64,000 bases of DNA from Harriotta raleighana (Eukaryota), in contig JBNZDD010013720.1 of the NCBI GenBank assembly GCA_050575255.1, positions 9,101,767 through 9,165,766 on the forward strand, read 5' to 3'. Made by a program: the position numbers and the translations under genes. Position 1 is the first letter of the stretch. Each line of letters starts with the position of its first letter. This document shows positions 23,156 to 50,191 of the stretch, piece by piece. Below the pieces are notes generated by a model, which did no database searches, was not told the origin of the DNA, and saw nothing but the letters and a program-made list of their open reading frames with translations.

Positions 23156-23324
23156 CATGATTCCAATCTATTAACAGCTCAGCCCTGGTAGCCTGCCATA
23201 AGGTCCACAGGTTCAAGGACTTGGAGATGTCTTCTCGATGTCAAATGTTTATAGCATTGAAGATAAATAGAAGATAAAACTTAATGTTATAATTTTGTCT
23301 ACTGCCCAAACATCTAGAAACGTG

Positions 23325-25756: not shown

Positions 25757-25764
25757 TATTTATT

Positions 25765-25912
25765 TATCCAGATATTTGTTAGATCAGGGTATTAAGAGAT
25801 ACGGGGCAAGGGTGGGTAACCGGACTTGAGGTACAGATCAGTCATGATCTTATAAAATGGCGGTACAATGCCAGAATCAAGGGGCTGAACAGCCTACTCC
25901 TGTTTCTGTGAT
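25765..25912 (+). mobile_element. CR1 3' end
   Basis: GATCAGTCATGATCTTATAAAATGGCGG...GGGGCTGAACAGCCTACTCCTG. Confidence 0.75.
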
Positions 25913-27059: not shown

Positions 27060-28165
27060 CAACAACAGCAAGAAAATTGTAGAGCGCTATTTATGTTGGG
27101 AGGATGTCACAAGGTACTGAACAGTCAGTGGTTGCATGGAACAGGCTGGAGCCTGCTGAATGGAGAGAGCGAACAGGATGATAGGGGGTCAACAAGTCCA
27201 AGAGGTAGGAGGGTGAAGTGAATGGGTGTGAAGGTGAGAGCAAGGATCTTGAATTCGATCCTCTGAGGAATGGGGAGCCAGTGGAACCAGGCGAGGGTGG
27301 GGTCGCGGAGCCTGGTGCGGGAGGATACGAGTTAAAGAGCTTTAGATGATCTGCAGCTTGTGGAGGGGAGAGTTGGGGAGGCTGACAAAGAGGGAGGTAC
27401 CAAATGCAAGCCTAGAGGTGACAAACGCATGCATAAGGGTTTCAGTAGCCTGATGTGTGAGGCAGTGACCAAGACGGGCGATGTTGCGGAGGTGGTGGAA
27501 GGCGGTGCTGGTCATGGCACAGATATGAGGGTGAAAGAACAGCTAAGGGTCAACCGAGACACCCAGGCTCCTGACTGGCTTGGTTAGGTGGAGTATACAT
27601 CTGTGGATCTGTTGCTGCCAGGGGCTGAGGTGCGGAGGAGCTGATGTGAGCCAATCAGGAGGGCCAGTGTTTTGCTGATGTTCAGCTATAGAAAGTTGTG
27701 TCTCATCCAGGACTTGATGTCTGACAGGCAGTCTGTCAGGATAACAGTACTTCTGGAATTGATGGTGGAGGCAGGGATAGAGTTGGGTGTCATCCGCATA
27801 CATGTGAACATTTACCCTATGTCTGAGGATGATGCCACCAAGGAGGAGCACATAGATGTTCAAAAGGAGGTGACAGAGGACAGAGCCCTGAAGGGTGCAT
27901 TAAATGGTGTGGGGGCTGGAAAAGAAACCATTGACAGAGACAAAATGTGAGAGGTGGAACCTGAACCAGTCAAGGAACCTTCAAGGTTGAGGTGAGTGGA
28001 GCAGCGGTGGAGGAGGATTGAGTGGTCGACAGTATCGAAGGCAGCCGAGAGGATGAGGAGGCAGACGGAACTTTGGTCACAGATGGATAAGATGTCATTT
28101 GTGACCTTGACCAGAGCAGTTTCTGATTGAAGGAGCTCATGGAGGGAGTGGAAGGAGAGCAAAGA
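27060..28165 (-). mobile_element. L2 LINE, 5'-truncated, frameshifted RT
   Basis: ETALVKVTNDIL, SAAFDTVDHSILLHR and HMYADDTQLY (RT catalytic YADD); L2 tail at 27060-27125. Confidence 0.92.
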
Positions 28166-29036
28166 GCAATGGTGTGGTTAGTACTGAAAAATCAATGTTA
28201 GTTTGTCACACCTTATTGCCTGGAATACAGCTGCATTGAAAAAAAATGCTCCTTTTTAGCAGTAAATTCTGTTTACAGTCCACCAAGACACATAATTCAA
28301 TAAATATAAGAAATGATATTGCAAACATCCCTGTGTGCAAACTGATGCTTGCCTACAAAAACAACCAGTTAAATTGATAATAACTACTGTTGAGATATTT
28401 TGAGGTATAGAGCATTATAAAAATGCAAACTATTTGGTACACTTTCTCATTGNGAGATATTTTGAGGTATAGAGCATTATAAAAATGCAAACTATTTGGT
28501 ATACTTTCTCATTGTAAAACTGTAAACTACTTTATTACTTTGCCATTAATTATATGTTACACCCCTTGCAATGCTACACAATATCTTGTTGTTGCTTAGC
28601 ACCAATTCGACAACATAGAGCACATTACAAGCCGTATTGGTATATACCTAAATCTCAGATAAATCGATGCTATATGNGTAAAACTGTAAACTACTTTATT
28701 ACTTTGCCATTAATTATATGTTACACCTCTTGCAATGCTACACAATATCTTGTTGTTGCTTAGCACCAATTCAACAACATAGAGCACATTACCAGCCGTA
28801 TTGGTATATACCTAAATCTCAGATAAATCGTGAGCATTACAAATGCTATATATGAGCATTACAAATGTATGAGTGTTTCCACTGTACAGAAGGACCAGTA
28901 TATTCATGAGTGCTATGTTCATGAGAAATCACACAATTCCAATTGGCGAGAAATTATTATGCAGAAAAACAATTACTTTATCCACCTATCAATTATTTCA
29001 TATACAATAACATACATTGGTTAGCCTTTGACTCAC

Positions 29037-29126
29037 CTCTTTGCTTAAATCGTGGTCACCATCACATAAAGATGAGTTGGGTATGTAAGCGAGCAGGCAG
29101 AGGGAAGAAGTTTTGAAATGCATTCT
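29037..29126 (-). CDS. Candidate 90-nt exon in intron 13: RMHFKTSSLCLLAYIPNSSLCDGDHDLSKE
   Basis: cttgacatcag|AGA...GAG|gtgagt (consensus donor); open only in phase 0. Confidence 0.3.
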
Positions 29127-29995
29127 CTGATGTCAAGATATACAAAGTATTAACATGTAGATTTAGGCCATGTAGGAGATTTGCTAACCTATTCCACTAC
29201 AATGAAAATGGCAACAAATTGTGTGCTAAATTTACGTCTGGTAAGTCCTTGCCATTCAGAAAGCCACCCAAAGCTGAAATCTTAATAACTGTGCTGAAGC
29301 ACATTTTGCTGCAAGTGAATGTCTCATTTGGTTTTAAGCCACAATGTAATCCCATCTCCACAGTAATCTTTTCTTCAAAAAATTAGGGTTTATCTATGTT
29401 TTAAACAATTGTGTCAAACCAACTGCTCTTTCGCTGTATCAGATGGAATGAAACATTGTCCCTAACCCTGTTTGGTCTGCTACTGTACTGTGTGATAACT
29501 AGAGTTTGGTTCAAGTGGGTGGTAGAGCAGTCTGAACAGTCTTCTTACCTTATCCATACTCAGAACCTCAGCAATGGCCTCCCTCCCAGAATATTACTTG
29601 GAGTTTATTGAAAACCAATCTTAGGAGGGATTATAAATTGGCAGAAGTCACTGATACTCCTTACTGATCAGTAATATGGATTACGGTCATCAATTTAATA
29701 TCATTTAGACCACATTTAATAATAATACCAATCCTTGCACTTGATTTAGTTGTGTATCATGTCATTGAAATGTCTCAAATGCACTTCACAGGATACTGTG
29801 AAGTGAATTATATTTTGTGGGTGAAACACAAAATACACAGCTTTTTGTACTTTAAGCTATATCAATTATCTTTTAAGTGTATTTTTAATTTCTCAGTGTG
29901 TTTACAATATATACTACAGCTTCTGTTTCTCCCAGCCTCGGGCAGTGCACAAAGGTACATCTTGGTCTATAGTGGGGCAGAAAGATAAGCCTTAC

Positions 29996-30033
29996 CTCCC
30001 AAGGCTGCCAATGGGCTGACGGTGTCAGACTGC
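29996..30033 (-). CDS. Candidate 38-nt alternative exon in intron 13: (G)SLTPSAHWQPWE
   Basis: gttgctttttacag|GC...GAG|gtaagg; phase 1 to 0 like exon 14; no transcript evidence available. Confidence 0.35.
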
Positions 30034-33000
30034 CTGTAAAAAGCAACATTCTGCATGAGCAAATCGTATGCGCTACATAACTACTCCTGATTCTATGTTT
30101 CCAATTGCTGGCCTGCTGAGAAATATCCCAGCCTCCGAACAAAGTACATTGGAAAGATAACACAATTATACATGGATTTGTCTGTCTGTTGCCCTGTTAC
30201 TATGGGAGTTGGCACACAGTGTAGACAGGGTGATTATACTTGGATGAACTCTGTAATAGAAATGCAGCTTCCAATCTGTTTGAAACCCTAATTTTCCACT
30301 TTTTCTGTTGTTGCTCGTCTAGCAAAGCAACAACAATCTGCTGTTATTCTCACCAAACATTATTTGTCACCGGGTCAAAATAATACTCATTTTAATAGTA
30401 TGAAATTTTGCCAGAAACATAAGCAAAATTATTAGTTGTGAAAAGGTTTAGTCAAGGGAGCGATGTGCACACATCCTTACTGATCAGCAAGGTAAGCAGT
30501 TGGCAAAACAAAAAAATGGTGGCAAGATTGCATAGCAATTAGCAGTTCAGAAAGCATAAGATCTGAAAATATAAACCACTTCTGTAGGAAAACAAATGAC
30601 AAAGATCCCATGCATACAATCAGAACATTATTATTCAAAGTTAATAAGCAGTTTTGATCCAACATGCTTTAACATTCGCCTCAAGCTGAGGATTTCTGCA
30701 GTAATTGGTAACCACAAGTTCATATTACATGCTTTAGTAATCAAAATGTTAGAAAGGAGAGTGTGTTAAACAGACAGTATCGACTCCTGTCAGCCTATTT
30801 ACTCTTCACTTGAATGATATAATGAAAGCTCCATACTGCTTTTCTAAAAAAATCAAAATGAATGAATCCTTTGCCTTTCATGGGCTGGAATTTAAAATTC
30901 TGATACCGTGTAACGAAGAGGTCACCACAGCCACCTGTCTCACTAGGAGACACTGGTCATTGAAAAGCTACTCATTAGGAAAATGAAATCTCACAGGAGC
31001 TAAGGTGATGGGGGTTCAGTGTGACATACTTGCGGCTTCCTGTAAAATTCACATTTCATGTTTGAAGTAATTTTTCCTGTCCAAGCTCCCCATTACATTA
31101 TCTGTTCCCCTGCTGGGCACTCCTTTTTAAGCCCTGAAAGGAAATCCTCCCCCACCCACCAAAACCCCCACCAGTTAATAAATGCACTGATCTTTGGCAG
31201 AGAAAATATATTATTCTCCATTTGGAAGAATACTGACCTCTGGGCAATGAGTAATTTTAATGGAAAATCCCAGGGTAAGTGCAGATCAGCAAAGAATACT
31301 GACACGCAGTCAATAATCACCAAAGATCAGTGTATTTCCTATCAACAAAGGAAATATCCCTTTATATGGAATCACTTAGTGAGAGGGAATTTAAATATGA
31401 CCCGATTCTTCCTAAAGATAGAGGCTGGATGTTTGCCCTCCAGCTAGGCTACATTTGATTAGTTAGCAAACTCAAAAGATTGAAGTGACTGCCAGCCCAA
31501 AATTCCAGTTTGTTCAACCTTGGAGAATATAGGGCAAACTAAGCCTGACTTGGCTGGGCTATGTTCACCGTTCATCCTCCCCTCTCTTCTCACAATGAAT
31601 TACAACTCAAACCATCTTCCTTTTACACCGTAAAGGGGACATCTATAGCTATTTGAATAAGGCAGTTCTCTGACAAAGCTCACATGCCAGTGCTATCTCC
31701 TTACTTTACAACAACCTCATAAACTTGAGATGATATAACATATGTCAATTTTCTATTGTCCAATCTGATTTTATTATTTGTACCCATAATATATCAGAGT
31801 ACACAGAATGGGCTCATGAACAGCTATTCTAGATGTAGCTGGAAATTTAACATTGGCAGCTACTGAGGGCATTCGATAAAATGAAACAGGGCACCACACA
31901 ATAATCATTGCAATCAGGACATATTTATGCGTGATGCTTGTATATATTTTGACAAGCAAGAGGAGGTCAAGGCAAAGGATTAATTTCTGTAAAACTATTC
32001 AGATTTTCTGGCTATTTATAGCACTGTGGTCAATTATTGCAACTCAGTTTACTTTGAGAAATGCAATACTGAATTATGAGGAAAATAAGTGAGTATTGGT
32101 TAATTTTACGTTGTTTTAAAAAACAAAATGATAAAATGTACGACAGCAAAACTGATACTGTCTCTTTAAAGCAGGTTCCTCTCCAAATGAAGCAGTGATC
32201 CTGTTAATAAAGGAAGGAAAGTACAGAGCAATATCTTGGTTTCCCTTAAAAGGAGATAGGATAGCCACCCATCATTAAAGTCTACTCCCCCCATTGCCAA
32301 ATGCTGGCCATTCCTGTTTCCTGAGCCTGTCTTTACCTTAACAGGATCACTGGCTTTAAAACAGGTACCTGAATACAAACATTTGCATTACGGAAACAGA
32401 ACATTCAGACAGCATTTCAAAAAGTGCAAGAACAGTCCACCATGCATTGAAAACAAGGACAGAATAAGAGGAGCCATTTCAAAGATACATGCTGACAGAA
32501 CAACAGTGTTTACAGTGAACAGAAATAAAAGCAAACCTTTTCATATTACTATATTAACCGTGTGGACAAATGACAATAATGAGAATGGAAGCCCCCTGGA
32601 ATCTCTGTTGAAAAAGGATTTTTTTTAAAAAGCACAGATTTAATTCTTGCCCATCGTCAATACTGTACAGTGCTTTAGCTATAGGCTATAAGAGCAGTTA
32701 GTATTCTTAGATACATCTAAGCTTGGTAGTTTTCTCAGGCCTCTGATTTCAAGGCCAAAAAAACTACCCTCACAGGAAGCAAAATAATTATGTCCAATGG
32801 AGCGAATCACTTCATATAGCTTTGATCTGTGATCAAATTTGGATTTTATATCAATCCAACACACTTTAGATCAAAGTGTGTTGGATTCAAAATACTACGA
32901 GATTAGAATAGATAATTTGAGTGAGGAAGCAAGCATCAGACATGACAGCAAGAAATGGCCAATTGGCCTCCTTTTGTGCTGTAATTTTTCTCTAATTCTA

Positions 33001-33799
33001 TCAGGGAAAGTAATGACTTATTTATAAATTCACACTGGAACAGTAACTTGCTTTAGCCTGCTTGCCAACTGGGGATCTGTGCTAGATGGGGAGATGCACT
33101 TACATACAAATATACTTCATTATTTACAGGTTCCAGGAAATGAACCGTGGACTGAGTTTTATTTGCGAGAAGTGCAAATTCATCCAGCATGGCTCAAACC
33201 ATTTAGTATTCTTGAATATGCGATGGAAACAAATTAAAATTCAGCCATAAATATTAATGCAAAGCCTCTGACCTTATGTTGGAACTGGCAAATTAGTATT
33301 CACCTTTTAATTGAAATGCATTTTCAATGTGCTTTCCTATTCGAAATCACTAACGTTTGTAGCAGGAGATTCAAAGGTTTATTCGCTCCACGATTGCAAG
33401 TTAAGGCTTTTGTAAATATAACAGTACAATCAATGCAAAGCGGAGCCTTATTGAGGCTGATCTGGACAATCTTATTTCTGGATGAGGGAGGTTTTCATTT
33501 TTAACACACAGTTTACTAAAGTGGGGGTGAGAACACAGATAACTGTTTGAGAAAGGTCAGATCACAAAAACGGTGTTCTCCGCAGTTCACTCTAAAGAAC
33601 GGGAATTTGATTATGAGACCTATATGGAGTGAAAGGTTTGCTATTTGGAATGATATAGAGGGGTCGTCCAGTAAAATCACAGTTTGTATCGTAAGCGCCT
33701 TTTCTGTCAGTTTTGCCATTGGAGCATTTGGTCAACTTCAGTTCCAGCACAGCAGGACAGAGACTGCACAACTGAAGAATTGAAAGGCCACCTTCAAGG

Positions 33800-34165
33800 C
33801 CAAAGGAGTCTAATGCTAGCATAATCCCAGAAGCCTTATTAAGAAACCTTGTACAGCGGGTACTCGCTTGCTTCACGTCCCCAGCCCTGCCTGCCCCACC
33901 ATCGGCATTTGGGCCTTCAGGCTTCAAGACATCCACTATCTGGAACTCTGTCCTGACACCTTGCCACTTCCCTCATCTACTACAAGGTCCATCTCAAGAA
34001 CTTCCTCTTTTGACTATGCCTTTGATCATCTTCATACCCCTACCTCCCTTGGCCTCCATTTCTCCTGATTCCACCTCCCAGCTTGAGTGCAAACCCTCAA
34101 CTGCCCAGCACCTTGGAACTCCTGACATGAAAAGTGCTGAATAAATGCAATTTGATGCTGTTGTC
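33800..34165 (+). mobile_element. Old L2 3' fragment
   Basis: L2-like 3' region ending CAGCACCTTGGAACTCCTGACATGAAAAGTGCTGAATAAATGCAATTTG. Confidence 0.65.
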
Positions 34166-34299
34166 CACATCCTAGTTGTGAACAATTTGTTCTTGGGGTC
34201 GGGATGGTTTCATAATTAACGATGATAACTCCAAAATGTTCTAAGTCGAAGTTTCACAAGCTTTACTCAAACAGTATAATGGGTGAAGGCATCTCCTGG

Positions 34300-34660
34300 T
34301 ACAGTACTATGTCATACTAACCAGAAAATTGCCAAACACTAAGCTGAATAGGCTGATCAATGCTCCTGGGTAGGGAGAAAACATTTAGTCAATGTTCCCA
34401 TTCATTACCAGTGCCAGACATGATATGTAAAGCGCTCTATCAATTGGAAGGATTATTAATGCTTTCTAATGATTCCTGCTGGTGGGTGCCTGTCTTAAGT
34501 ATCAAGCTCATCTGTGAAGCCCTCATAGATAAATAGTTTGTGATCACTTATTGTCAAGGCTCAAACATGAATAATGGCCACTTTGGCAAAGTACTAATGA
34601 CAACTAGTGCTCATTGAACGCAGCTCAGAAGTCTGGGAAAGGAGGGAAGAAAATTGGTTA
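34300..34660 (+). repeat. Old diverged interspersed repeat, probably a SINE (other copies near 10745, 39375, 41270, 45350, 53830, 60290, 63050)
   Basis: Shared blocks such as ACTGAGCCATACAGACCAG and CATG(T)GAA(G/T)AATGGCCACTT recur across copies. Confidence 0.55.
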
Positions 34661-37600
34661 AATTTAGAAAAATATTCCACAATCCATGGCTAAATTTGCA
34701 AAGTCAGGTTATTTCCATGTATAGTTAGGAGCTAAGGAATCCCAGAGTGGAAATCGTGGAAATTGCAGCATTAGAAAGCCATCGAAAAACTGCTGCTATC
34801 TCACTCACAAAAGATAACTACTGCATTCTAATCTCAATTCCTTGTTCCTTTCCTGTCACCTTTAAAATCCTCTTTTCAAACTAGTTTAGAATGTTTAACT
34901 TTTTCTGCCAGAGACAGGTACGCAAGGTTAGTCAAGGTTTAACATCCTTTGCCTATTGATTCTGGCTTTTCACAAAGATTAAACCCAGAAGAGGACAAAA
35001 GTGTGAGAGGATGATCCTGCATGACTGATATCTATCCCTGGTGTCGAATCAAACACAGGACAAGAAGAGAATGTGTTTTTTCCAAAGGCTAATTTCATTA
35101 GCTTTCTCCAATTTATGGAATAATTGAAGGAGCACTGCTTCTTTAAAATACCGAAAATATAGCATTGATTCTGAGAAACTTCCTATCATTTAATCTGAGT
35201 GCCAGTTTTAGCCGCACTATAAATTTATGTGTGCGCATTAACAGACCAGTACAGTAGCTTACTGTTACTAAAATCATTTCTGATTTTATATCCTACAAAC
35301 TTCCACTGGCAATGCAGGGCTAAGACTCCTGATGCCTCTTCCATCATTCCTGCATTTCTTGGATTGGGATGCCAAGTGGCCTGTCATTTAGCGTGTGATT
35401 GTGCTGCTGTTTTGAAGCAAATGTGACAGATAATGCCACAGCAGGTCTAACGTCAATGGTTATTTAACAACTAGGAATGAATCAATATAAATGTTGGTAA
35501 TGAGACTGCAGTTAATGGTTCTTAGTAACTAGAAAAGTTCACAGATCTTACAATCCATGAAACAAAATGTATCTTTGAGAAAGGCTGAGTTACGGGAGAA
35601 CAAAGCAGCTTCATGGTAAAAGCTCTGATCTAAGTAGATGAGAGGAAGTACAGACCAAAATTCAAGTATCAATTGGCCATTCTGTAGAATTGAGTCCAAT
35701 AGCAATCTTTTCCTCAGTCAAGTTTTATAATACTACTTTCAATGTTGAAGTGGAAACATAAAGGGTAGCCAAATCGTCATTTTGCCAATGAGCTATAGAT
35801 CCACAGCAATTGCTATAAAACAGATTTGGCTTGGGTTTATGACTCATTGGCGCATGCTTATTGGCATCACTCCCCTACCAGCCTAGTCAAAAAATGCTGC
35901 TCAATCAATATTAAGGGCGCACAAGTATAAAAGTCAGTAGTGGTAGGCTGGAGAGGATCACTAGCAACGTGCTTAAGCAGTAACTCAGAATGACAGATTA
36001 CAGGTAATGATCTGGATGTTTTTTAGATCACGAATAGGATCAAACCAAAATGTGCAAGTCTTAATCCTGCTGTGTCTGATGTCAAACTGAAGAATTTCCT
36101 ATCTTAACTATAGTCTCAGACATCTGACTGCAAGCAGTGCATTCATTGCTACTCTCAATTTGATTCAAACTGCCAGAATGGAAACAAAACCAGCACATAT
36201 ACAGTGTACAATTTCCCTCATTCATCTAAAAAGACACTGTACTTTGAATAGCTAATATACTGAGAACATCTTAGCAGTTAGTTTCAGCGCTTTGGGACAT
36301 CCTCCTAACGTGAAAGGCTCTAAACAAGTGTAATTTTGTTGTTGTTAATGCTGCTCCCAAGGTGGTCACATTGTCCAGCCAAAGTAGGTGACTCTTGTGC
36401 CTTGAATTTCTATCAAACCCGACATACAACCAAATTCACAGCTAACAAAAGCGGGATATAGGGCAGAGAAGCTATTTGTATTGTGAATAGTGGCATCTAT
36501 CTTACATATAAATTAATGTAGAAGATCTCTGCAGTATTTCAATACAATAGTTAATGAAGACGAGTAAATTATAATCTTCTATTTAATCTCTTCCTCCTGA
36601 GGCAGGAAGTGTGGATAAAATGGTTTTGGCAGGACTATTATTTTGCCCGGATAATTTAGTTGCAAACCACATCACTGGCCTTGTAAATTGCTATTGAACA
36701 ACATTTTCCCATTATAACATAACACCAGCAAGAAAGCTCTGATCCAGGATAATACCAGATCAGGATAAGAGGCTCTTGTCTGCCATGGTAGTAGATTAAC
36801 TAATCTTTGGAGAATAACTACTTTTAATACCAACTACTACATAGTGAATCAAGCCACTTATTTTAGGTACATATATATGTGAAAAAAAAGTAAAGAAACT
36901 CTACCTTTTAATTCTTTTAGGATCTTTAACCACATCTCCATATCAAGAATTACTTTAGTTTTTGTCTAAATGCTTTACCAAACAACAACAAATAAACTCA
37001 TTGAAAAGGACAAACCAAACTACTGCACAAGTGAAAGCACTAACCAATGCCATTCTCATCACATTGCTACTAATCTGTTATACCTTTACGAGATATCTCA
37101 GAAACATGAAGGCAATATTCTGATACCTGAATATGCATCAGATCATTTCACACCTCAGGAGTCATTTATGAGTTTTTCGAGATACACCACATTAGAACAC
37201 CTTATTGGAGCAATTGAAGCTCTGCCAGGTTTACTCAGTTACACGGTAAGAGTTTCGGGCAGGAACAATAGAATCCAATTCAATACAGACTAGGGCTAAA
37301 TGATCCATTTAATCTATCTTTCTGACCTCCCAAAAAATCTCTTACAACACATCCATCTCATCACCTATCCTTGCACTTTCCAGGAACCTGTCTAAATTTC
37401 TCTTTGAAACCCTTTATAATAATTAATTCCATGGATACTGTGATTTAGCAGATATGCAATACCACAAATAAGTACAGGACACAATTGGATAAACAGTCTG
37501 AGGTACTGCTCACTCCACCACAACCTCAGAAACCACAAGTGACAAAGTCACGGAGGTTATGAAAAACACAGCCAGACTCTATATTCTCTTTAAGCCACAG

Positions 37601-38037
37601 AGAAGCACTTTGACATGTAATCTAGTACACATTTATCAATGTAATTTTTCACTATACGGAAACACAGTAAAGGCAGTCAGTTGAGTTTCTTTGCAATGCC
37701 AGCAGGAAGCTGCTATGTCAGAGACAATGGGTCTATTGCAAGCCATTTGCTGAAAATAATCTTTTCATTTCTGTACTTCCTTCTAATGGGATCTCCCATT
37801 CCAGAACAAGTACAAAAAGGTTCCCATTGTTAGCGATCGTTAATGTGATAAACCTATTCTTGTGACTTTGGAAAGAGAGTGTTGCTCAAGAATTAGTTGA
37901 GTAGCACAAAGGTATTTGGTGGTCTCTGATGCCACATCTATATAAACACCAACAATAGCTCATGGACAGGACGACAAACAACTGGCTAATGAAAAGACAT
38001 GTTGCAAACTGAATGCTCCAGTTCTGGAGGAATACAG

Positions 38038-39288
38038 CTAACAGGTGATGACACCATGCTCGCTCACTGGACTGCCATCATCAGGGTCACTGAAACTGAT
38101 GGAGCCCTCCTCCTCATCGTCTAACTGCAGACTCCCAAATGAGAACTTGCTCCTAGGCATTGGCGAGGAGTTCACTGCTATTGGGTTCCCAAACGTTAAC
38201 GGGTGACTGAAGGGATTAATGACTTCGGAGTCGGAATCACTGGATTCTGTTCCACTGCTGGTAGAGACATCCAACAGCTGGGCACCACCGATGTGCTCGA
38301 CACAGCCAGCTGCCACCAGCCTATGGACAGGGGGGCTGGGCTTGGGCTGTCTGGCAGCTGACAAGCCATTACCTACAAGTCGTCTCTCTGACAGCAGCAT
38401 TGTAGGCGAGTTAACTTTGAAAGGGGTGCTACCCCGATATTCATTCGATGGGGTGGAGGCTATTCGACTGAGGATAAACGGATCAGTCTCTGACCTGTTG
38501 CACATGCTCTGCACTCGCTGGGAATATGGTCTGCTTAAAATGGGGGAGAAGCTATTGCAATCCTTTTGGCTGTACATGTAGCTGTCTTTATTCTCTAGCC
38601 TGCGGTTACAATGGCCATTCTGTAGAACAATGCCTTGATACCCATGCTGGTTGAAACTATTAATAGGGCTAGATACTTTGCTACTACAGTGTACTGGGGT
38701 GGCTAAGGGATTGCGAGTTTCTGAATCTCGGAATATCTCGTCAACCAAAGAGCTGTGTCCAGTTGTCCGAGGGCTCCTTCCAGAATAAAAGGACAGATTA
38801 GAAAACTCTTCTGTACTATGGAGTGGAGCTTCTGCCAGCGAGTAACTGTGCAATTCCCTATTCCTGAGCTGATTGAGATTTTCATTCCTTTCAACAAAGT
38901 ATTCACCGCTAACACACTCATCCTCATAATTGTCATTTGTTTCTGACTGTGACCTGATTATTCGCCCTTTGATTAAATCATACTCGCTGCTATCTACGTC
39001 ACTGCAGTCAATATAAGGAATGGAAGAGCTACTTCCACGAGCAGCTTTGGATGCTGGACCTGCATTCTGTTGCTCTTTTTGGGGTTTGGACTGCTGAACC
39101 CTGTCCCTCACAGGTTCCTCCATCACCACTGCTTCCCTCCTGTCCTCCTTCGGGCTCCTCTTTGGTGATCGACTCCCGTGTTCAAGCCCATCTTGATTAC
39201 TTGATTGAGTAGCAACTAGCTCCTTCCTCTGGTTACTAGCTGTTTTCCCTGGGGATGCAGACATGACTCCAAAAGTAAAACTAGCACT
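38038..39288 (-). CDS. FARP1: FARP1 exon 13, long read-through terminal form (416 codons + TAG) with FRMD7-like C-terminal tail
   Basis: Uninterrupted ORF continues about 340 codons past the weak donor; Ser-rich; ends ...ESSDSDSEVINP...SPMPRSKFSFGSLQLDDEEE...HGVITC*. Confidence 0.8.
   Translation of the reverse strand, partial: SASFTFGVMSASPGKTASNQRKELVATQSSNQDGLEHGSRSPKRSPKEDRREAVVMEEPVRDRVQQSKPQKEQQNAGPASKAARGSSSSIPYIDCSDVDSSEYDLIKGRIIRSQSETNDNYEDECVSGEYFVERNENLNQLRNRELHSYSLAEAPLHSTEEFSNLSFYSGRSPRTTGHSSLVDEIFRDSETRNPLATPVHCSSKVSSPINSFNQHGYQGIVLQNGHCNRRLENKDSYMYSQKDCNSFSPILSRPYSQRVQSMCNRSETDPFILSRIASTPSNEYRGSTPFKVNSPTMLLSERRLVGNGLSAARQPKPSPPVHRLVAAGCVEHIGGAQLLDVSTSSGTESSDSDSEVINPFSHPLTFGNPIAVNSSPMPRSKFSFGSLQLDDEEEGSISFSDPDDGSPVSEHGVITC
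39060..39288 (-). CDS. FARP1: FARP1 exon 13, short spliced form (229 nt), linker SASFTFGVMSASPGK...RDRVQQSKPQKEQQNA(G)
   Basis: tttcag|AGT acceptor; weak donor CAG|gtccag; phase 1 matches exon 14; DRVQQSKPQ resembles human DRTQQSKPQ. Confidence 0.88.
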
Positions 39289-40402: not shown

Positions 40403-40478
40403 TTGTTTTGGCACCTCTGATTGATGATCTGAAGGCTGTTCAGACAGACTCCTGACGGATCGGATTTTACTATGTTTC
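40403..40478 (-). CDS. FARP1: FARP1 exon 12 (76 nt): KHSKIRSVRSLSEQPSDHQSEVPKQ
   Basis: tttcag|GAAA...CAA|gttagt; phase 2 to 0. Confidence 0.94.
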
Positions 40479-40607
40479 CTGAAAATAAAATGTAAAACCA
40501 TTAATTTGCAGCAACATTTAATAACACTGATTTGTCTGAATGATAACTGTTCCATTTCCCCTCATTCCCACAAGAGATCTATGTAAGAGATCTCAATACA
40601 CACCCAC

Positions 40608-40676
40608 CTTTCAAATTGTGTTCTTTTGTATCCTCCTTCCTTAACATAATCCAGGAGTTGCTTCTGTGTCCTGCCA
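40608..40676 (-). CDS. FARP1: FARP1 exon 11 (69 nt), FA domain: (S)GRTQKQLLDYVKEGGYKRTQFE(R)
   Basis: tttcag|TGGC...GAAAG|gtgggt; phase 2 to 2. Confidence 0.95.
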
Positions 40677-41451
40677 CTGAAACCAAACAAAGACTCACGT
40701 TAGCTCCATGATGAGTTCCATGGGAACTGGCCCTTCTTGCAGGATTACTGCTTCCGCATGAAGAGCACACAACCTGCAGGTGGTCAGCAGTCAGTGGAGC
40801 CACTTCCCCAGTGTGAAGAACTGAGTTTGCCTGTTCCAACGCAGAAATCAAATCTGTAGAACACAACCTGCGCCCAAAACAAAAGCATTAATGCACCTTG
40901 AATGCTGCTGTCATAGCTGGTTTGAGAGCATAATGCAGACAGCCGTCCGGTGTAAAATTTTAAAACTTAAATGCATCCTCCCCCCTGCGACTCTCTGTGT
41001 GGATCAGAAATATGGTATCTCATTTCAATCCTTCTCCAAAGGCATTCAACTATGGCTGGCAGACTCCTTTGGCAAAATGACTGGCCGGTGAATTATAGCG
41101 TCATGCAACCTGGAAGACATGACATGGTTCAACTCAAACTAGGCATTAGTTAGAGCTCTACAATCGGAATCAAGGTCTTGAACTAGACAGAGGACCAGTC
41201 AGTTGAGGTCCCAAGTCCTGATTACAACCAGACCCCCTCTTCCAGGGAATGTGAGTTAGTTTTGGACCTGGGCTGTGATGCTTTCCTCAACTGGCTCGTG
41301 ACACGTATTGATTTGGCCCATATGTGAAGAATGGCCATTTGAATGTAGTACTGGAGGATAACTAATGCATAAGGAATTATACTCCCAACATGAGTCGGTA
41401 TCTTCAGGAAAGAAGAGGAGAAAGTTACACAGGAAGGTGCAAATCTATTAC

Positions 41452-41612
41452 CTAAACCTGAAGGAAGAGCCTCGACTGAAAAGAATAGGTTTAGGCTTTG
41501 GTTTGGGCTCCTCAATTAGTCTGAAAAAGGCATGATATTCAACACATATCTTCCAGAATGCCTTGCAGGAATCACGACTGTTCATGGAGAACTCCAAGGT
41601 ATCCTGACAAGA
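41452..41612 (-). CDS. FARP1: FARP1 exon 10 (161 nt): [53 protein letters not shown]
   Basis: ttgcag|TCT...TTTAG|gtaata; end of FERM and start of FA domain; phase 0 to 2. Confidence 0.96.
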
Positions 41613-41706
41613 CTGCAATGAAAGAAAAAGGTGAAAATATAATCACTACTCATTGATTCAAAACCAGCTCAAAACCAGAACAGTTATTTAACGTAACATC
41701 ACTTAC

Positions 41707-41802
41707 ATTGACCTCTGGTCGGAATTTGATGAGAAATCGTTTTCTCTTGAAACTCAGCTTGCGAACTTTGGCCCAGTTGAATGAGTTTATCTTATTTTGA
41801 CC
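41707..41802 (-). CDS. FARP1: FARP1 exon 9 (96 nt), FERM F3: [32 protein letters not shown]
   Basis: tgaag|GGT...AAT|gtaagt; FERM-C motif [16 protein letters not shown]. Confidence 0.96.
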
Positions 41803-41917
41803 CTTCATCAAAGACAAAAATATAATGTGTCGTTTCATTCATCTCATACAACTAAATTACCTAGTGCTAGTATGATAAATGTGACTACTGCACAAACACC
41901 AAATGAGTAACTATTAC

Positions 41918-42065
41918 CTGGAACACTATGATCCCTGTGTGTGACACAGATAGGTGAATCTTGGTTCCCTCTCTGTCTTTTGCAGGATGCTGTCGAATTC
42001 CATACGTTTCTAATCTTCTGGCAATCTCAAGGAGTTGAAAGTCTGATTCCGCTGGTGTCTGTCCT
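41918..42065 (-). CDS. FARP1: FARP1 exon 8 (148 nt): GQTPAESDFQLLEIARRLETYGIRQHPAKDREGTKIHLSVSHTGIIVFQ
   Basis: caaag|AGGA...CCAG|gtaata; lies within ORF 41885-42208; phase 2 to 0. Confidence 0.96.
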
Positions 42066-44158
42066 CTTTGACAAGGAAACAAAGAAACAATCTTGAGGAA
42101 GTAATTACACTTGCTTAATGTCACAGTTGTGTTCGCGAAAAGTGCGACTTTAAATGAAACGATTAATATAGCGCCCTCGACACCGGATGGTATCCCATCG
42201 AACTTCACAATAACAGATCCCAGGGGCGAGCCAGGGGCAGGGGAAGAAAGGTGACCAAAGGCGCGGTCGAAGAGAAAAACTCTATAACTGAGACCTGAAA
42301 CTGGGAAGAGAAGGGGAAAGTCGAAGGGATTGAGGAAGGGAATTCCAGAGCGTCAGGGCATAGTGGCTGAATGCAACGGATGTTCAGAGTCTATGTACAC
42401 CTACACTACCCAAAGTAGTTTGTTTCCACTTGCGCATATGACATAATAGTGAACGTCGTGACATTAAATGAACATATATTGATCAGCATATTATCAGCAA
42501 CATTATACGAGGCAACTGAAGCAACATTAAACGAGGTCTACCTGTATTTCATCTGCCAGTATCCTTTATTCTAATGAATTTCAGCACCACATTGCTATCC
42601 CAGGTCTCTGGTATACCAGCACCTTGTTCTATTTAAGGTCATCAGTAACATAGGTCCATATATATTCAAGGGCTTCAATTGTGTCATGTTTGACAGAGAA
42701 TGCTACCGAACGTAAAATCAGGCTGTATCCTCACTCTTGTCTGCATTGATTCACTTCTAGCAAGGGTCACTGCATAGTGGTAGGCAGCACAAATTCTAAC
42801 TGTTTTTCTTCTCCCTTCTCCCAAGGTCATTAAAGACAATTACACCTTTTCTATAGATGAAATTTGATTATAGACAGAAATTTTAAATTTAATTCTAGCC
42901 AGAAAAAAGTTTAGAATAGGTAAAAACAATTGAAAAAAAGTTACAATATAAAATCTTTCATAGTGAGATGATGGAAGAGAATAGAAGGAAAAATTATGGC
43001 AGAGCAAGTCTAGGCAAAGTTTCTGAAAGGTATTATTGATTTTTAAAATTATGCTTTTTGCATTAATTTTTGAGGGCCATTGTTAATAATGTAATTATGT
43101 TACCTGATGTTTGAGCAGTTCCATTTTGGTAACATTAATGTTTTTAAGATCACAAATCATTACTATCATAAAATCTATTTCTAGTCCAACTTTGCTCTGC
43201 ATGTGAATCAAAATTCTCTTTCCCTTTTTAGATAGTAAGCATATGAATATAACTTCAAGGTTTTCTTTGAATTGTTAGTAACATTGTTTGAATAGAGTTC
43301 TGAAAATCCATCTGCAGGAATTTGTGTGAAAACCATTTCTAAAGGCCACTTTTTACCTGTAACATTCCAAAGCTTGATCACCCAAAAAGCTGCTATTATT
43401 GCAGCCTGACGTGACTTCTGCTTACAAATTCAGTGTGATGTGAATATCAATTATAGCCCAGACTGTGTTTCCAGATCTGATATGTGCTGAACGTCACACA
43501 AACAGTGCTTTTTTCCACTTGGATACTGAGGAAGCAGAACTGCTGTCAAATCAGTATCCGTGACTGGCAGCGTGCCGGCAAGTGATATAATTAATAATAT
43601 TTCACTGCAGATAAAACGTCCCTTTCCATCAGACGTGACCATTCTGGTCCCGAATTGATTTCCTGAGCTAATATTCTTAAAAAATGGATTAGACACGTAT
43701 TTTAAAAAGAAAAAATATAAGAATAATCTTTTCATTTACAAGACTATGGGGAAACAGTGAGACTAATTGGATAGCACTATATATATATATATATTTTCAT
43801 AGACACCATTGTGCTGTGAGATTGTATGATTCTAAGGGGCAGGGGAAGTGGATAGATGACACAATCATAACAGGCTAAATGATCTCTCTGTGTGCTATAA
43901 CACTCATTCAATAATTCTAAGATTTGAATCCATTGTTTAAAATGTGCATCCAGCATTCTCACATTGTCCTTTACCTGATGGAGATGGGAAGGCAATATAT
44001 GAGAAACTCCCAACTATTATTTACCATCCAGCTCTTTACAAACCTTATTTACCAACTGAGACATTAGGCAAGCTCTTGTAACAATTGCAATGAAATTACT
44101 GGCTTCCACATCTCTCTCTGCTATAATAACCATACAGAATGACTACTTGAGGTCTTAC

Positions 44159-44273
44159 ACATGTCTTCGATGAAACTCCATGATCTTGTCTTCTAGTGTA
44201 TCTTGCTGAGGCATATATTTGTTTTTTTCCAAATGTTCCTGATCAAGGGTTTCATCGAAATCCCCAATCTCCG
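44159..44273 (-). CDS. FARP1: FARP1 exon 7 (115 nt): SEIGDFDETLDQEHLEKNKYMPQQDTLEDKIMEFHRRH
   Basis: cacag|CGGAG...CATGT|gtaaga; phase 1 to 2. Confidence 0.96.
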
Positions 44274-44575
44274 CTGTGACAAGGATGAGAAATTTAAATT
44301 ACTCTGTCAGTTCATACAGCAGTTTACACAGACACAAAATATCTTCCAACTCCTCTCCTGAGCTCCAAAATTTCTTACACTCCCAGGGTTTAGATTGTGC
44401 AACATTTATTGTGCTGTCTTAAATTGAAGCAGATTTTCCAGAATACCCCCAAAAACACCTCAGTGAGACCATGGAGGATCTTCAAGTCATTGAGCTGAGA
44501 TCCTGGGAGCCAACTGCATTGACACACCTAGAACGTGTTTCCTTCCGTAAAAGAAGCTATTCCAGGATTACTCAC

Positions 44576-44673
44576 ACTGGATAATGTGAGACACCAACAA
44601 TGCCATGCTCATCTCATTGCAGGTCATCCTTCCCGAAACTAAGTCCTGCTTGATCTGTAGTGCAAAGAGGTAC
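44576..44673 (-). CDS. FARP1: FARP1 exon 6 (98 nt), FERM F2: [32 protein letters not shown]
   Basis: ttgcag|GTAC...CAGT|gtgagt; phase 2 to 1. Confidence 0.96.
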
Positions 44674-45629
44674 CTGCAAAACACAAATACCCAAGTCAAC
44701 CAGCTCCCTGACTGTTCAGCAAAACATTCACATTTATTTCACTCTCCCCTTAGTTCCATCACTACGACCAGCCTTTCGCGATTCAAACTCCATCTTTCAG
44801 GTCACATTTTCTGACATGGGACCAGCCATTTTTTTCTTCTAAAATTAGGTCAGGAGAGAGTAAAAGATAGAAGTGACAGTTCAACTCAGCCTTCAAAACA
44901 AATCCCCTTCCAGCACCAGTGCATTTATAGCCTAAAATAATTTTTAAAAAGCAACATGCCATTAAATGGCCTAACTTTTTTAAACAATTGCTGGAAATCT
45001 TTGAATTAGCATTTTCCAGGAGCTTTACAAATCCTTGATTTCCCCTTCGTCCACCAATCTCCATCTTGCCCAAACAGGTAAGATTTATTGCCTTTTCTCC
45101 TCATCTATCTTGAAAGCTCTAACTCCTAATGGCCTTGGGTTCCATGATTGCTAGAACCCAGTACCTTACTGATGTGGTCATGTATTATACATTGTGTATA
45201 AACAAGTGTCGTATGCACCATTTCCAAATGGTGTGTGCAGAAGGAAATACAAGTCCCTTTATTTATGTAACTAGCAACCATGAAAGGGATTGCTGTTTAC
45301 TTACATAAACAATAAATTATTTCCATTGATGCCTGGTCCTGATTGTGGTCTAAAGACTTCTGCTGGAAAGCGTGTGTGTGGACATTGGGTGGAGACGAGT
45401 TTGAATCAAGATTCATTGTGATCACTGCCCCCCACACAAGCACACCTCGATTTAACGTCTCATCCAAAGAATATGGAAATAAAGTTGGCTACTTATATTG
45501 GACACTTAATATTGGACCTCACTATCTGGGTTCACAGGTGAAAAATAATATGAGTAATGCAGAAGATAAAGGACTGGTATACATATAATCCACCAATTTC
45601 ACAGTAAATCCAACTAAATCAACACAGAT

Positions 45630-45846
45630 AATAATAATAATAATAATCCTTGCATTTGATATAGCACTTTTCACATCTTATCAACATCTCAAAGCGCTTC
45701 ACAGAATATACTGTAAAGTGAATTGACTGAATATTTGTGGGCAGAATGCGGCAGTCAATTGCGCACAGCAGCGTCCCACAAATAGTCATGGATTGAAATG
45801 ACTAATTTTATTATTGTGTTTTTTTGGGGACGGATTATTATTAGGC
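45630..45846 (-). mobile_element. tRNA-SINE 3' half
   Basis: (AAT)n tail and core. Confidence 0.85.
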
Positions 45847-46075
45847 ATAATAAGATACACGCAGGCCAGGCGGATTTATTACCCCATAATGACGAGCCTC
45901 ATGGATGGATTGAAGCTGGTTCTGTATGGCTCTCTTTCGTGCTGAAAAACTACTTCACCAAGTAAGCCAGTGGCTTCCAAACTGTGAATAGCTGTGCCAT
46001 CCCTAACTCAGCAACATTTTTGTTGCACTCCCCCCACCCCCCACCTCCTTCACACTCAGCCCTGCACACTTGTGT

Positions 46076-46779
46076 TGTTAGGGAAAAACGATTTTTAAGA
46101 CATTTGTGTTCCTTATTAATATAATAGACTCATGAGGAACACGTAGGCACTCTTGTTAAAAGAATAAGAGGGAGTAAAAAAGGGCAGACAATTAAAAAAA
46201 GAGTTATGAATGGTAGCCTGTTCAAAAGTGATATAGGTTGCCAGGAAAGGGAGACGAGGGCCCATCAGAGCAGAATTCCTATGTGGGAGGGTAACAGGAT
46301 GAGCAAGGCCTGCAAGGGCAGCAGATAACGAAGCTGGAGAAAACATCTTAGCAGCAACTGACATAACTCTTGCTGACCAAGTACAAAGGAGAACTAAGGA
46401 TCGCAATAGATAAGAGTTTTGACCGGCCGGACACATTGGGGACTGGCCAGTAAAACATTAAACAGGCGGGAAAAAAGTGCTGGCTCGGCAATGTTCTTTG
46501 TTTGACTGAATACGTAATGTATGTACGTACATTGGTTAAGGATGGATGAGACGTTATTTTTTCTGCACCAGCAGATGATGTATAAATTGTAGTCACTCGT
46601 TGAGCTCAGGGTCTGAGTCTGACTAGAGACCTGACCCTATCTGTATGTGAGTTTAACTTGACTTACTTACTTATAGACCGAGTTAATAAACTTTTACTTA
46701 TTCAAACTCTTGGTATTTTCTGGGTTTCTTTGCATGTTTTAATTCCAATTCCACATAGGTATTCGCAATTTACCTAAAA
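46076..46779 (+). mobile_element. Solo LTR (704 bp)
   Basis: TGTTAGG...CCTAAAA termini; 4-bp TSD GTGT (46072-75 and 46780-83); TATAAA at 46581; AATAAA at 46685. Confidence 0.7.
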
Positions 46780-47138
46780 GTGTCCTCAGCTACAACCCTG
46801 CCCGTGGGACCACCGACCCAACGGGCACCGGTGGAGTCCCGGGCAGAGGTGGCGCTGACCTACAAACAAAATTTGCACAACAGTTTTAACACTATCAAGT
46901 GTGACAGGAATTTGTGCTTAATTATCCCTAACTAATTATCCCTAACTCCAATCAAGCCCAATTACCTTGTTAGCTCCATTTAACATGATCACCAATAACC
47001 ATCAAAGGAAGTGACAAGCTTTATTCCCTGCTATATACAGTAAAAGCCCGTTTATCCATGACTCAATCAACTGGAACTTCCGTATAACCGGTGCGTCAAC
47101 AAAAATCTACAAATGTAGTTACTTCATTTTACAATATA

Positions 47139-47496
47139 CAGGTATCCCCGATTTATGACGGGATTGCATTCCTTGAAAATGGTACACAAATCGAAACAAT
47201 GTAAATCGAAACAGGGTTTCCCATGCAGTCCCATTATATAACCCGAGATGCGTTCTTTTCAAAAAAAATTCTGGACCTTAAACCCACTAAATAATACACA
47301 TACCACACTAAATAACACACAAAATAATAAATAACACACAAAACTATTTATAGTGTGAATGAATGTATCTTTCATTCCCTCTCTTTCTCTCTTCAGTCTC
47401 TCTGTCTCTATGTGTGTGTCTCTCTCTCTGTATGTCTCGGTTTGTGTCAGTCTGTACAATGACATTGTGCTGTAGTTGTAGTATGAGTGAGTGAAT

Positions 47497-47527
<31 letters not shown>

Positions 47528-47848
47528 GTAGACAGGCAGGAAGACAGATATTGGCCAGTTCAAATGCTTCGATACATATATCAGGCGCAACCACGATTTT
47601 ACCATGAAATACACTATGTACTATGTACACTATGTACTGCGTATTGCCAAATACGACTGCGATTTTACCACGAAATACACTGTGTACTGTGTATGTGCAA
47701 AAAAGATGCGCTAAATTTTTTGGTCGTTAAAATGAAACCAAATATATAAATGGAGCTAACCAAATATATCGATGAAAAGGTGTTAAATAATTATGTTTGT
47801 TAAATTGAAATGATGTAAATAGAAGTGTCGTAAATTGGGTGATATCTG
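47139..47848. mobile_element. Tigger-like MITE inserted at a TA within a SINE tail; contains (GA)n
   Basis: TA-CAGGTATCCCCGATTTATGAC ... GTCGTAAATTGGGTGATATCTG-TA; SINE tail resumes at 47851. Confidence 0.8.
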
Positions 47849-48112
47849 TATTCTGTGAAGTGCTTTGAGATGTCGTTAAAATGTGAAAAGCGCTACATCA
47901 AAAATGCAAGGATTATTATTATACCTATTTGTGGGACATTCCTGTACATAAATTGACTGTCATTATACTTTAAAGTAAATCCTATGAAGAAATTGCTTTT
48001 GAGATATCTCGACAACCACTCTATATCAAATGCATGGATTAATATTACTGTATCATGAAGTGTGTGTGACAGAATTTCTCACATGCACTTTTTCCAGCTT
48101 TGAATCACAGTG

Positions 48113-48822
48113 CAGTAAAAGCCCGTTTATCCGGAATAACAAATGACTCGATGATCCGGAAAACCCGTTGAACCGGAACCTCAAAAAAAAGTCCGGATTC
48201 GATAAACCGGAAATTATCCGGCAGCATAGTGATGACGCATTTAATGAATCGACTGTCACACGCGAGTACTGGTTCAGGTACTCGGCTGGCCGCTAGTCGA
48301 GCCTAAACTCACTCCTGCTCCTTTTAAAAGTTGTGTTGCCGTTTTGTTTTCCTCCATGGGGACAGTCATTGCGAAGTATAAATAATAAAGTACTAATACA
48401 ATATTTTGTTAATATAGTATCTGTTAATAGTGTATTTAGTCTATTATTTATATAGTATTTAACATTTACAATAAAGTAGCCATACAATATTCTGTTATTA
48501 CAGTATCTGTTATTACTGTATTTTTTCTATTATTTATATGGTACAGTATACAACATTTACAATAAAAGATCCATAAAATATTGTTATTATCTGTTATTAT
48601 TTAGTCTATTATTAATATGGTATGTGTTAAAATAATTTTGAATTAAAAAAAAGTAGATTTTTTTTTNTCTGTTATTATTTAGTCTATTTTTAATATGGTA
48701 TGTGTTAAAATAATTTTGAATTAAACAAAAATGGAGATTTTTTTTAAAAAAAGTTCTACCGGAAAACCGTTTAACCGCCATTGGCCAGGTCCCGTGGGTG
48801 CCGGATAAACGGGCTTTTACTG
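48113..48822. mobile_element. Tigger/pogo-like MITE with perfect 22-bp TIRs
   Basis: CAGTAAAAGCCCGTTTATCCGG (48113-48134) / CCGGATAAACGGGCTTTTACTG (48801-48822); AT-rich internal repeats shared with the 1178 and 8805 elements. Confidence 0.88.
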
Positions 48823-49735
48823 TATAACATTTGTTATTCTCCAGGATTCAGTTAGCAATCTACTTCTTGCAGAGCTCCTAAAATATCTACCATTAAGTGA
48901 AATTGGTCTGGTTGGCCAGTAATCTGATGTATCTATATAGTTAGCATGCACAGATATCTTTCACAGATAGAAATCTCTTTGGAATCACAAGTGCTTGTTA
49001 GAGTAGATAAAATATTAGTCCAGCTACTCTGAATTATTTAAAAGCTATATCCAGCTGGTTCTAGAGCCCTGTGGGTTATTGAAGTATTATTGACTGCTCT
49101 CAGTCCAAAGATCAATGTTAATTTTGAACCCTTCAACATTTGGTTAGAAGTTTAAAATAAATTAAAGGTTTCAATAAAATCTGAACCAGTTTGACTAGGG
49201 ACTTTGAATGGAAAATCCAGTATTCCTCAATGTGAAAGGGGACAGTTCAGGGAAAATCATATATTTTTGTCTCTGAGTTGAGAATGAATCTATTACACAG
49301 CATCAATCTTACTTTTACTTGAGATATTGAGCTGTTAGGAGACAGTTTCCTGGACACAGCATGTGAAGTCACAAGGTGAAAATCAGGGCCTGTGATCTGT
49401 TAATTATTGAAGATTCTGCTCTAATGAGCACTAAAGCTATATTAACTGGACCGAAAGAGGGTGAATTTTGGATCGGAAATTTTGGATTTCAAAGCTAATT
49501 CAAAGCCTGTTAAAAAACAGATGATGTAAGCAGGTGGGACTATATACAGGAAGATGCTTATCAGTGCTGAATGACATATGCTGGCACTCGGAATGAAATA
49601 ACACTGTTCCCTGCTCAAACCAAACCATCATCCTAGCAGCTGGCACAGACAAGTAAGATCAGCCTGCATTGCTATGCACAATGATAAGTACGAAGATGAG
49701 AAACAAATGAATGTAAAGAGAAAAATGGCACTAAC

Positions 49736-49814
49736 CTTGTTAGTTCTTCTTGTAGTTGTGCATGATCAGGTGGGAAGAATTTCACCACGAACCTCATCAC
49801 AACATGTTTTGGTC
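49736..49814 (-). CDS. FARP1: FARP1 exon 5 (79 nt): (R)PKHVVMRFVVKFFPPDHAQLQEELT(R)
   Basis: ctag|GACC...CAAG|gttagt; phase 1 to 2. Confidence 0.96.
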
Positions 49815-50148
49815 CTAGAGGAAGATTAAGTCATTTTTGTGTTTTATAAAGCAAACATGAATTGAATATCAAGCAGTAATAGCACATACTCAGAAAGTGG
49901 TGAACGCTGGTCTCCCATCCCTGTGGATATAAGTTCAAATGTCAAGAGAGACCAGCTTTTACCTCAAGTCATTTGTCCACTAAAGTAAAACATTCAATGG
50001 CTCTTTCAAGCACACCCAAGTGTAGTCTTGGAACAGATTGCAATATAGACAGGCACCCGAACAGCTTCCATGTGAGCACTCTGTGGAATTGCATGGCAAG
50101 GCAGACATTGGTTTGTAAAGATAAACCAACAAGACAAACAGTACTCAC

Positions 50149-50191
50149 TTCTGACTTGATTCGCAATTGGTTTTAAAAGATCCAGCCATAC
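50149..50191 (-). CDS. FARP1: FARP1 exon 4 (43 nt), FERM F1: VWLDLLKPIANQVR
   Basis: ttttag|GTATGG...AGAA|gtgagt; phase 0 to 1. Confidence 0.95.

Follow-up and report, generated by a model that had tools for sequence, protein, structure and literature searches.

Why does the reading frame of a FARP1 exon stay open far beyond its splice donor, and does the locus thereby encode a second, FRMD7-like protein? The gene lies on the minus strand of the window, the 64,000-nt stretch of Harriotta raleighana DNA analysed here (contig JBNZDD010013720.1, positions 9,101,767-9,165,766 of the forward strand), which holds its exons 3-21. FERM and FERM-adjacent (FA) exons are followed by DH-PH-PH exons, and the closest relative is FARP1: the DH exon matches FARP1 (PDB 4h6y) with E 1e-34 and FARP2 more weakly (E 4e-26). 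Proteins of the source genome are 87-88% identical to those of Callorhinchus milii, as befits a holocephalan, and the 88%-identical Callorhinchus orthologue groups within the FARP1 clade of a FERM tree. The locus is not FRMD7 itself, since FARP1 and FRMD7 form separate FERM clades, the FRMD7 gene of this genome lies on another contig, and DH-PH-PH exons, which FRMD7 lacks, come after intron 13. The gene ends about 17 kb outside the window. We found no ATG exon in the window or in the 80 kb upstream (C13720:9165767-9245766), so that either intron 2 is very large or this exon has diverged; the length of about 800 aa given below for the short protein is hence an estimate. The FARP1 introns also contain broken reverse-transcriptase remnants (27543-28177 and 4500-4977, with YADDTQLY and AFDTVDHSILL), which we take to be of LINE type, and a repeat occurs in two copies (1061-1336 and 8685-8966) with near-identical conceptual translations.

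Exon 12 terminates with ...EVPKQ at 40403, and exon 13 begins behind the acceptor TTTTCAG/AGT at 39288 (a slash within a sequence marks the cut). The stop-to-stop frame of exon 13 (39324-38038, minus strand) spans 428 aa. As the earlier note had held, it is the longest of the window, among 49 frames of at least 90 aa; the runner-up, put there at 151 aa, measures 170 aa stop to stop. The proposed read-through is borne out by the sequence: the frame is open for 1019 nt from 39059 to the last sense codon and closes with TAG at 38040-38038, adding 339 residues after the junction Gly where about 340 had been claimed, and the three motifs described at 38998-39036, 38212-38247 and 38107-38166 are found at these positions. 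With the stop frequency of the window (0.058), 339 open codons from a fixed start have a chance probability of p ~1.6e-9; when the bases of the tail were shuffled 5000 times, no shuffle attained this length, the longest open run being 178. The GC content is 48% in the tail versus 39% elsewhere in intron 13. The donor that the frame overruns has 5/9 matches to the U1 consensus, tied lowest with four other donors, and agrees with exon 14 in phase (phase 1). The coordinates are collected in Table 1.

Table 1. Elements of the FARP1 locus in the window, with the corresponding FARP2 extension of the same genome
Feature	Position	Strand	Remarks
Exons 3-12, FERM and FA domains	40403..51675	minus	common to long and short forms
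Exon 13	39060..39288	minus	common to long and short forms; splice joint 39288/40403 in 3/3 runs of a relative
Internal donor CAG/GTCCAG, cut 39060/39059	39054..39062	minus	doubles as tail Gly-Pro-Ala codons
Read-through coding extension of exon 13, 339 codons + TAG	38038..39059	minus	predicted disordered, with conserved short blocks
Block A, GSSSSIPYIDCSD	38998..39036	minus	aligns with HSQSSSAFPLVY of tetrapod FRMD7, weak match
Block B, NDNYED..G.Y, TEEF(IDDDP)..SFY.G, P.HS(S/T)L.DE.F	38740..38940	minus	limits approximate
Block D, STSSGTESSDSDSEVINP...FGNP...SSPMPRSKFSFGSLQLDDEEE	38107..38262	minus	strongest match to FRMD7 last exon
C-terminal VITC	38041..38052	minus	most non-therian orthologues end VFSC-like; therians seen without such an end
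Probable 3' UTR of short form	35500..38037	minus	contigs cover down to 35500
Intron 13 of long form, 19,612 nt	19448..39059	minus	none of the other 17 introns measured in the window exceeds 5,060
Exon 14, starts 19447 (TCCTTCAG/GT TCT CTG), GSLTCSPHVSEL...	19260..19447	minus	entry to DH-PH-PH half
Exons 15-21, DH and first PH domain	925..16440	minus	long form only
FARP2 extension, ~326 codons past likely donor	C13635 ~2748050-2749273	plus

The 416-aa exon product matched no Pfam family, and the ESM Atlas returned unrelated names with a top score of 0.84. In an AlphaFold2 model of the bird short form (807 aa) the FERM domain is folded and the tail is devoid of secondary structure, with pLDDT <50 for nearly all of residues 318-807. 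The model gave no sign of tail docking on FERM, a weak test given its shallow 100-sequence alignment.

Conservation of the tail extends from chimaera to human. Searching with residues 77-416 of the exon product revealed homologues in 77 of 3109 candidates at 729-2080 aa and in 129 of 2008 candidates at 228-728 aa, many of them FERM-FA-tail models of 750-890 aa. Named carriers are chimaera, sturgeon, teleosts, frogs, lizards, birds, a marsupial and placentals, with identities of 88% for the tail of Callorhinchus and 41% for that of human; no lamprey, hagfish, amphioxus or invertebrate name occurs in any match list, in which many Logan matches are unnamed. In therians the FARP1 tail ends some 15 residues sooner (..EEEDE), without the VFSC-like end of fishes, frogs, reptiles and birds (P0007, P0200, P0255, P0029 and others). 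The short isoform itself is already known. The earlier note had called it hidden, which does not stand, since Ensembl, UniProt and RefSeq models exist, among them human A0A1B0GV68 (801 aa), zebrafish XP_005172563.1 (772 aa) and Callorhinchus A0A4W3H926 (751 aa), and mouse brain peptides were published in 2021 (PMC8248162); the note's caveat that its novelty would then fall applies.

Probable transcripts of the short form are present among assembled reads. Whole FERM-FA-tail ORFs occur on single Logan contigs of 2.7-4.5 kb (P0017, P0030, P0036, P0045, P0059, P0064 and the human P0200), which are too short for the unspliced gene and thus point to spliced RNA. The sequencing runs searched included no RNA run of H. 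raleighana itself. For a relative about 90% identical, RNA-type data consisted of three runs from one study, as contigs only and with the library type guessed; of 504 differences counted in them, none of the 40 listed falls in the tail. GT-AG joints lie at the exon borders 41612/41707 and 39288/40403 in all three runs. An exon contig terminates at 39058, precisely where exon 14 (GT TCT) and the read-through (GT CCA) diverge, and a further contig spans 37285-39084, across the tail and onward (3/3 runs). Coverage past 39060 is present in the relative, and its contigs fork at the donor. Their depth amounts to 25, 26 and 98 in the tail and to 229, 110 and 258 in exon 13, values that are unfit for ranking the isoforms. 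Introns 10-12 are also partly covered in these runs, so pre-mRNA may contribute to the contigs. Over the stretch down to 35500 the relative's contigs contain no transcript 3' end, the cover running to its edge; ATTAAA occurs at 37313, 36912, 36828, 36587 and 35194, and the first AATAAA at 33383, 4.65 kb beyond the stop. Thousands of contigs from the three runs pile up on high-copy repeats at 39939-40163 and 36283-36347.

At the protein level, Li et al. (2021, PMC8248162) described an 800-aa mouse Farp1 form through nine intron-specific peptides, with 244 spectra in 132 brain samples. Their supplement table gives ten Farp1 peptides, one of which spans the donor (..PQPSTGPASR) while one looks C-terminal. 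Six pieces of these peptides match mammalian tails found in our analysis. The mouse isoform and the annotated models use the same exon and the same read-through and have an orthologous tail, so that the feature of the window, an in-frame extension past the exon-13 donor, is the chimaera orthologue of the human and mouse forms, differing from therian ones by its later end. Taken together, the frame, its conservation, the spliced contigs and the mouse peptides support the reading that one locus encodes both full FARP1 and a FERM-FA-tail protein of about 800 aa.

Could the tail instead belong to a longer FARP1? If a second donor, within the tail or at its end, were joined to exon 14 by alternative 5' splicing, the tail would mainly be an insert in a GEF-containing FARP1 of ~1,350 aa. 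Such an arrangement appears in 24 database models that connect the tail to the DH half, two bats sharing one tail-DH junction and three cyprinids another, and a phase-1 donor-like site formed by the last codon and the stop (T/GTTAG, in CCT/GTTAGC at 38043/38042) is in phase with exon 14; splicing there could also explain the conserved terminal Cys. However, the junctions of the 24 models are scattered, as expected from gene-prediction repairs, and the contig 37285-39084 is unbroken at 38043 in 3/3 runs, although contigs drop rare forms. Moreover, one mouse peptide ends at the apparent C-terminus of the short form (PMC8248162), and 162/232 tail-bearing records (redundant) end in Cys then stop, 114/232 with a terminal VFSC. 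This alternative is thus improbable as the explanation of the tail, and a tail-containing long form may exist as a minor third form. Near the position corresponding to 38038-38043, some few of the long forms in the databases join up with exon 14 again.

It is still less likely that intron retention or slow splicing produces the short form incidentally, as no more than a loss-of-function or dominant-negative FARP1 with a functionless tail. Li et al. (2021) found the mouse form as a retained intron and suggested possible loss or gain of function; the available part of their paper mentions neither deep conservation nor FRMD7 or FARP2 (PMC8248162). The large intron 13, the weak exon-13 donor, the partial coverage of upstream introns in the relative and the disorder predicted for the bird tail agree with such a reading. 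On the other hand, the frame is open over 310-430 codons and contains ordered conserved blocks in all jawed-vertebrate groups seen, which needs selection at the protein level; two paralogues also retain related tails, and one of these genes is a disease gene with pathogenic last-exon truncations (PMC12811896). The conservation of the tail indicates that the mouse form, read as a possibly disease-related retained intron, is a normal product.

In its own genome, the tail has its best non-self match (E 7e-11, 49% over residues 243-330) in a FERM-FA gene, namely in the last exon, 49 of whose 54 database matches are named FRMD7; two more own-genome matches (E 6.9 and 8.3) were taken as chance. The start of this FRMD7 last exon occurs three times with two single Ns between (C13686:1112294-1112438), which suggests an assembly artefact. 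In the large database, single-sequence searches gave no FRMD7 among the 77 matches and among the 120 of 129 listed for the FARP1 tail and, from the FRMD7 side, no FARP1 among 54 matches. An HMM of 33 FARP1 tails placed 55/55 FRMD7 tails above the best of 1100 local shuffles (median 27.6 bits vs a shuffle maximum of 9.5), and the reverse FRMD7-tail HMM placed 25/33 FARP1 tails above shuffles. For these sets 2/35 FARP1 and 1/15 FARP2 sequences had been dropped because the cutting motif was missing, and the FRMD7 set contains no mammalian sequence. Furthermore, hhalign of FARP1 vs FRMD7 tails gave 98.5% (E 2e-15) over 73 C-terminal columns. After masking of the Ser/Asp/Glu block 38/55 FRMD7 tails still pass, and with the first 150 residues only, 6/55 and 15/33 pass, which suggests that homology to FRMD7 is weaker in the N-terminal half of the tail.

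The FARP1-FRMD7 alignment is collinear over four blocks; for instance, coelacanth FRMD7 NVSFYLGKPPQVPRRTSVLVEEILR faces sturgeon FARP1 NVSFYAGGTLQMPRHSTLVDEIFR, and (R/K)SxTDP in 28/33 FARP1 tails stands opposite RSxSQSD in 49/55 FRMD7 tails. The motif (R/K)SxTDP and the terminal VFSC are candidate 14-3-3 and class II PDZ ligands, respectively. Among the motifs that the earlier note attributed to FRMD7, DVSKQ, HSQSSSAFPLVY and a 21-residue stretch occur in the FRMD7 sequences checked, those of shark, coelacanth, salamander, reptile, bird and two teleosts. The homology of the tail to the FRMD7 last exon, proposed in that note, is upheld by the profile comparisons (HMM 55/55, hhalign 98.5%), and the short product, with FERM-FA and this tail, is FRMD7-like. 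FRMD7 consists of FERM-FA plus one long last exon and resembles the FARP1 short form in its collinear homologous tail blocks and in a paralogous STK neighbour; it differs in being a separate gene without GEF exons, whose FERM domains form their own clade (100/99). The published view of the C-terminal half of FRMD7 is that it is unique and that its function is unknown (PMC3633374, PMC3163398). In a non-exhaustive search of the openly accessible literature, which calls the FRMD7 tail homology-free, we found no report of its homology to FARP1.

A corresponding extension is present in FARP2. In the same genome, a 422-codon frame lies at the exon-13 position of FARP2 (own-genome match E 0.06, reciprocal E 0.03). 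It follows an exon ending ADVPKQ and precedes GSLTGSP and the DH-PH-PH exons by 13 kb, and a phase-1 donor CAAG/GTTCTG, presumably used, fits exon 14. This FARP2 extension also ends Cys-stop (T/GTTGA). A search with it yielded 17 representatives, namely 15 FARP2-type tails, one camel FARP1 tail and one repetitive 1824-aa match (P0347) taken as chance. It is conserved in birds or reptiles, teleosts, lemurs and whales, the named carriers being lemurs, whales, Astyanax, a goby and Coregonus, and one 802-aa FARP2-type ORF lies on a 2.7-kb contig; no human or mouse FARP2 tail is named among the clusters of the 16 of 17 matches examined. In the match P0342, Pro and Ser are widely replaced by Phe and Leu, as in a C-to-T converted library.

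With the FARP1-tail HMM, 13/14 FARP2 tails beat shuffles (reverse 15/33), and hhalign of the two tails gave 96.9% (E 1.5e-10) over the N-terminal 100 columns. The shared part is Block B, which is common to the FARP2 extension and, more weakly, FRMD7; indeed, TEEFIDDDP..(V/I)SF..GG is common to sturgeon FARP1 and chimaera FARP2. TEEFIDDDP with its IDDDP is present in sturgeon FARP1 and nearly all FARP2 tails, IDDDP is missing from both chimaera FARP1 tails (window ~38795-38815, minus strand), and bird and frog FARP1 have variants. FARP2 and FRMD7 tails display no direct similarity (HMM 0/14 and 0/55; hhalign 0.7%) and are linked only via FARP1. Judged by sequence, the first third of the FARP1 tail is held in common mainly with FARP2 and the last third mainly with FRMD7. 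In the literature searched, non-exhaustively, we met no mention of a homologous FARP2 extension at this position.

The surroundings of the three genes add to this picture. FARP1 faces a STK24-type kinase tail to tail, and FRMD7 faces STK26 in the same manner: on contig C13686 the STK26 coding exons reach ~1,103,700 and the FRMD7 stop lies at ~1,111,330, with ~7.5 gap-free kb between. Neither this interval nor the 71 kb searched on the downstream side of FRMD7 gave a DH/PH match. No STK kinase exon was found in 43 kb downstream of FARP2, so the synteny is shown for two of the three loci. The tail occupies the same exon position in all three. This synteny reading (FRMD7-STK26 with no GEF exons, FARP1-STK24) was likewise not found in the literature searched, again without claim to exhaustiveness. 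The FERM tree (25 rows after removal of 3/28 that lacked the anchor motif, and rooted at the midpoint just for display) has three clean clades and no outgroup, and the order of duplications is not resolvable from it. A different three-gene history, with the FRMD7 likeness due to convergent low complexity, or the tail arising on a FARP1/FRMD7 branch and the FARP2 extension separately, could draw on the Ser/Asp/Glu-rich best FRMD7 block, the lack of a FARP2-FRMD7 match and the unrooted tree, but is very unlikely, since the FARP1-FRMD7 signal outlasts masking and local shuffling, the blocks are collinear, sturgeon FARP1 and chimaera FARP2 have a motif in common and the exon position is the same in three loci.

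The worm frm-3 gene is instructive by its layout, tail sequence and donor position aside: one FARP locus gives two forms, GEF-less FRM-3A (FERM-FA, no known C-terminal domain) and FRM-3B, which adds a GEF and two PH domains, by splicing from a donor inside the last frm-3a exon (PMC7260190; PMC9632837), and C. elegans frm-3 works with LIN-2/CASK (PMC7260190). Since FARP1 and FARP2 both have the extension plus GEF exons, and worm frm-3 has two forms, the most parsimonious history, however the tree is rooted, is a loss in FRMD7; the FARP2 extension strengthens the argument for a two-isoform ancestor. FRMD7 is most likely the duplicate that kept the short form only. This part of the earlier proposal stands, but its subfunctionalisation does not: FARP1 and FARP2 each retain extension and GEF exons, so the partition is a one-sided fixation rather than a reciprocal one. 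Duplicates that fix one splice form are a familiar class, in which one paralogue keeps one form, as here; the partition among FARP1, FARP2 and FRMD7 is one-sided.

Accounting for these observations as a whole, we think it highly probable that FARP1 exon 13 is a composite exon with two mutually exclusive outcomes and a three-paralogue ancestry. Use of the internal donor would splice out 19.6 kb and give full FERM-FA-DH-PH-PH FARP1; skipping of the donor would add the 339-residue tail and a stop, giving the short protein. Composite terminal exons arising by intronic polyadenylation are a known class, and exon 13 resembles them in its weak donor (5/9 U1), large intron (19.6 kb) and in-frame extension; its poly(A) site is putative. 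A stop codon upstream of many junctions should trigger decay, which argues for intronic cleavage rather than retention of all 19.6 kb; the short transcript most likely ends at an intronic poly(A) site. On the evidence of homology and synteny, the ancestor of FARP1, FARP2 and FRMD7 probably had this composite exon. After block duplication, by parsimony, FARP1 and FARP2 would have kept both forms and FRMD7 would have lost the GEF exons.

The short protein retains FERM, which binds membranes, and FA, lacks the GEF half and carries a tail of short conserved motifs predicted to be disordered. It would act like FRMD7, as a membrane scaffold, probably with CASK, and not as an exchange factor. A published study reportedly concerns FRMD7, RhoGDI and Rac1. 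The KRKR lipid patch (PMC6041286) is retained in the short form, where the window encodes LSFKRKRF. In FRMD7, the FA domain is bound by CASK, and the tail on its own promotes neurites (PMC3633374); the worm FERM-FA alone rescues receptor clustering (PMC7260190). In FRMD7, last-exon truncations are pathogenic and no missense disease variant is known in exon 12 (PMC12811896), a pattern that would fit short motifs in a disordered chain; the motifs shared by FARP1 and FRMD7 may be individually dispensable, given the absence of such missense variants.

The isoform is not new; its reading is. The FRMD7 tail gains two paralogous tails, from FARP1 and FARP2, which mark a few blocks conserved in jawed vertebrates as the residues to mutate. 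Knock-downs of FARP1 or FARP2 at 5' exons would affect both forms, and reagents against the GEF half would miss the short one. [quoted passage not shown] More speculatively, and with considerable doubt, the long/short switch could be one ancient bilaterian device, homologous to worm frm-3a/b, through which all three paralogues make a FRMD7-type CASK scaffold and the short FARP1 and FARP2 cover FRMD7 loss outside the eye-movement circuit. If this is true, FRMD7 mutations would cause only nystagmus because short FARP1 and FARP2 cover elsewhere, and part of the synaptic role credited to the FARP1 GEF would belong to the GEF-less form.
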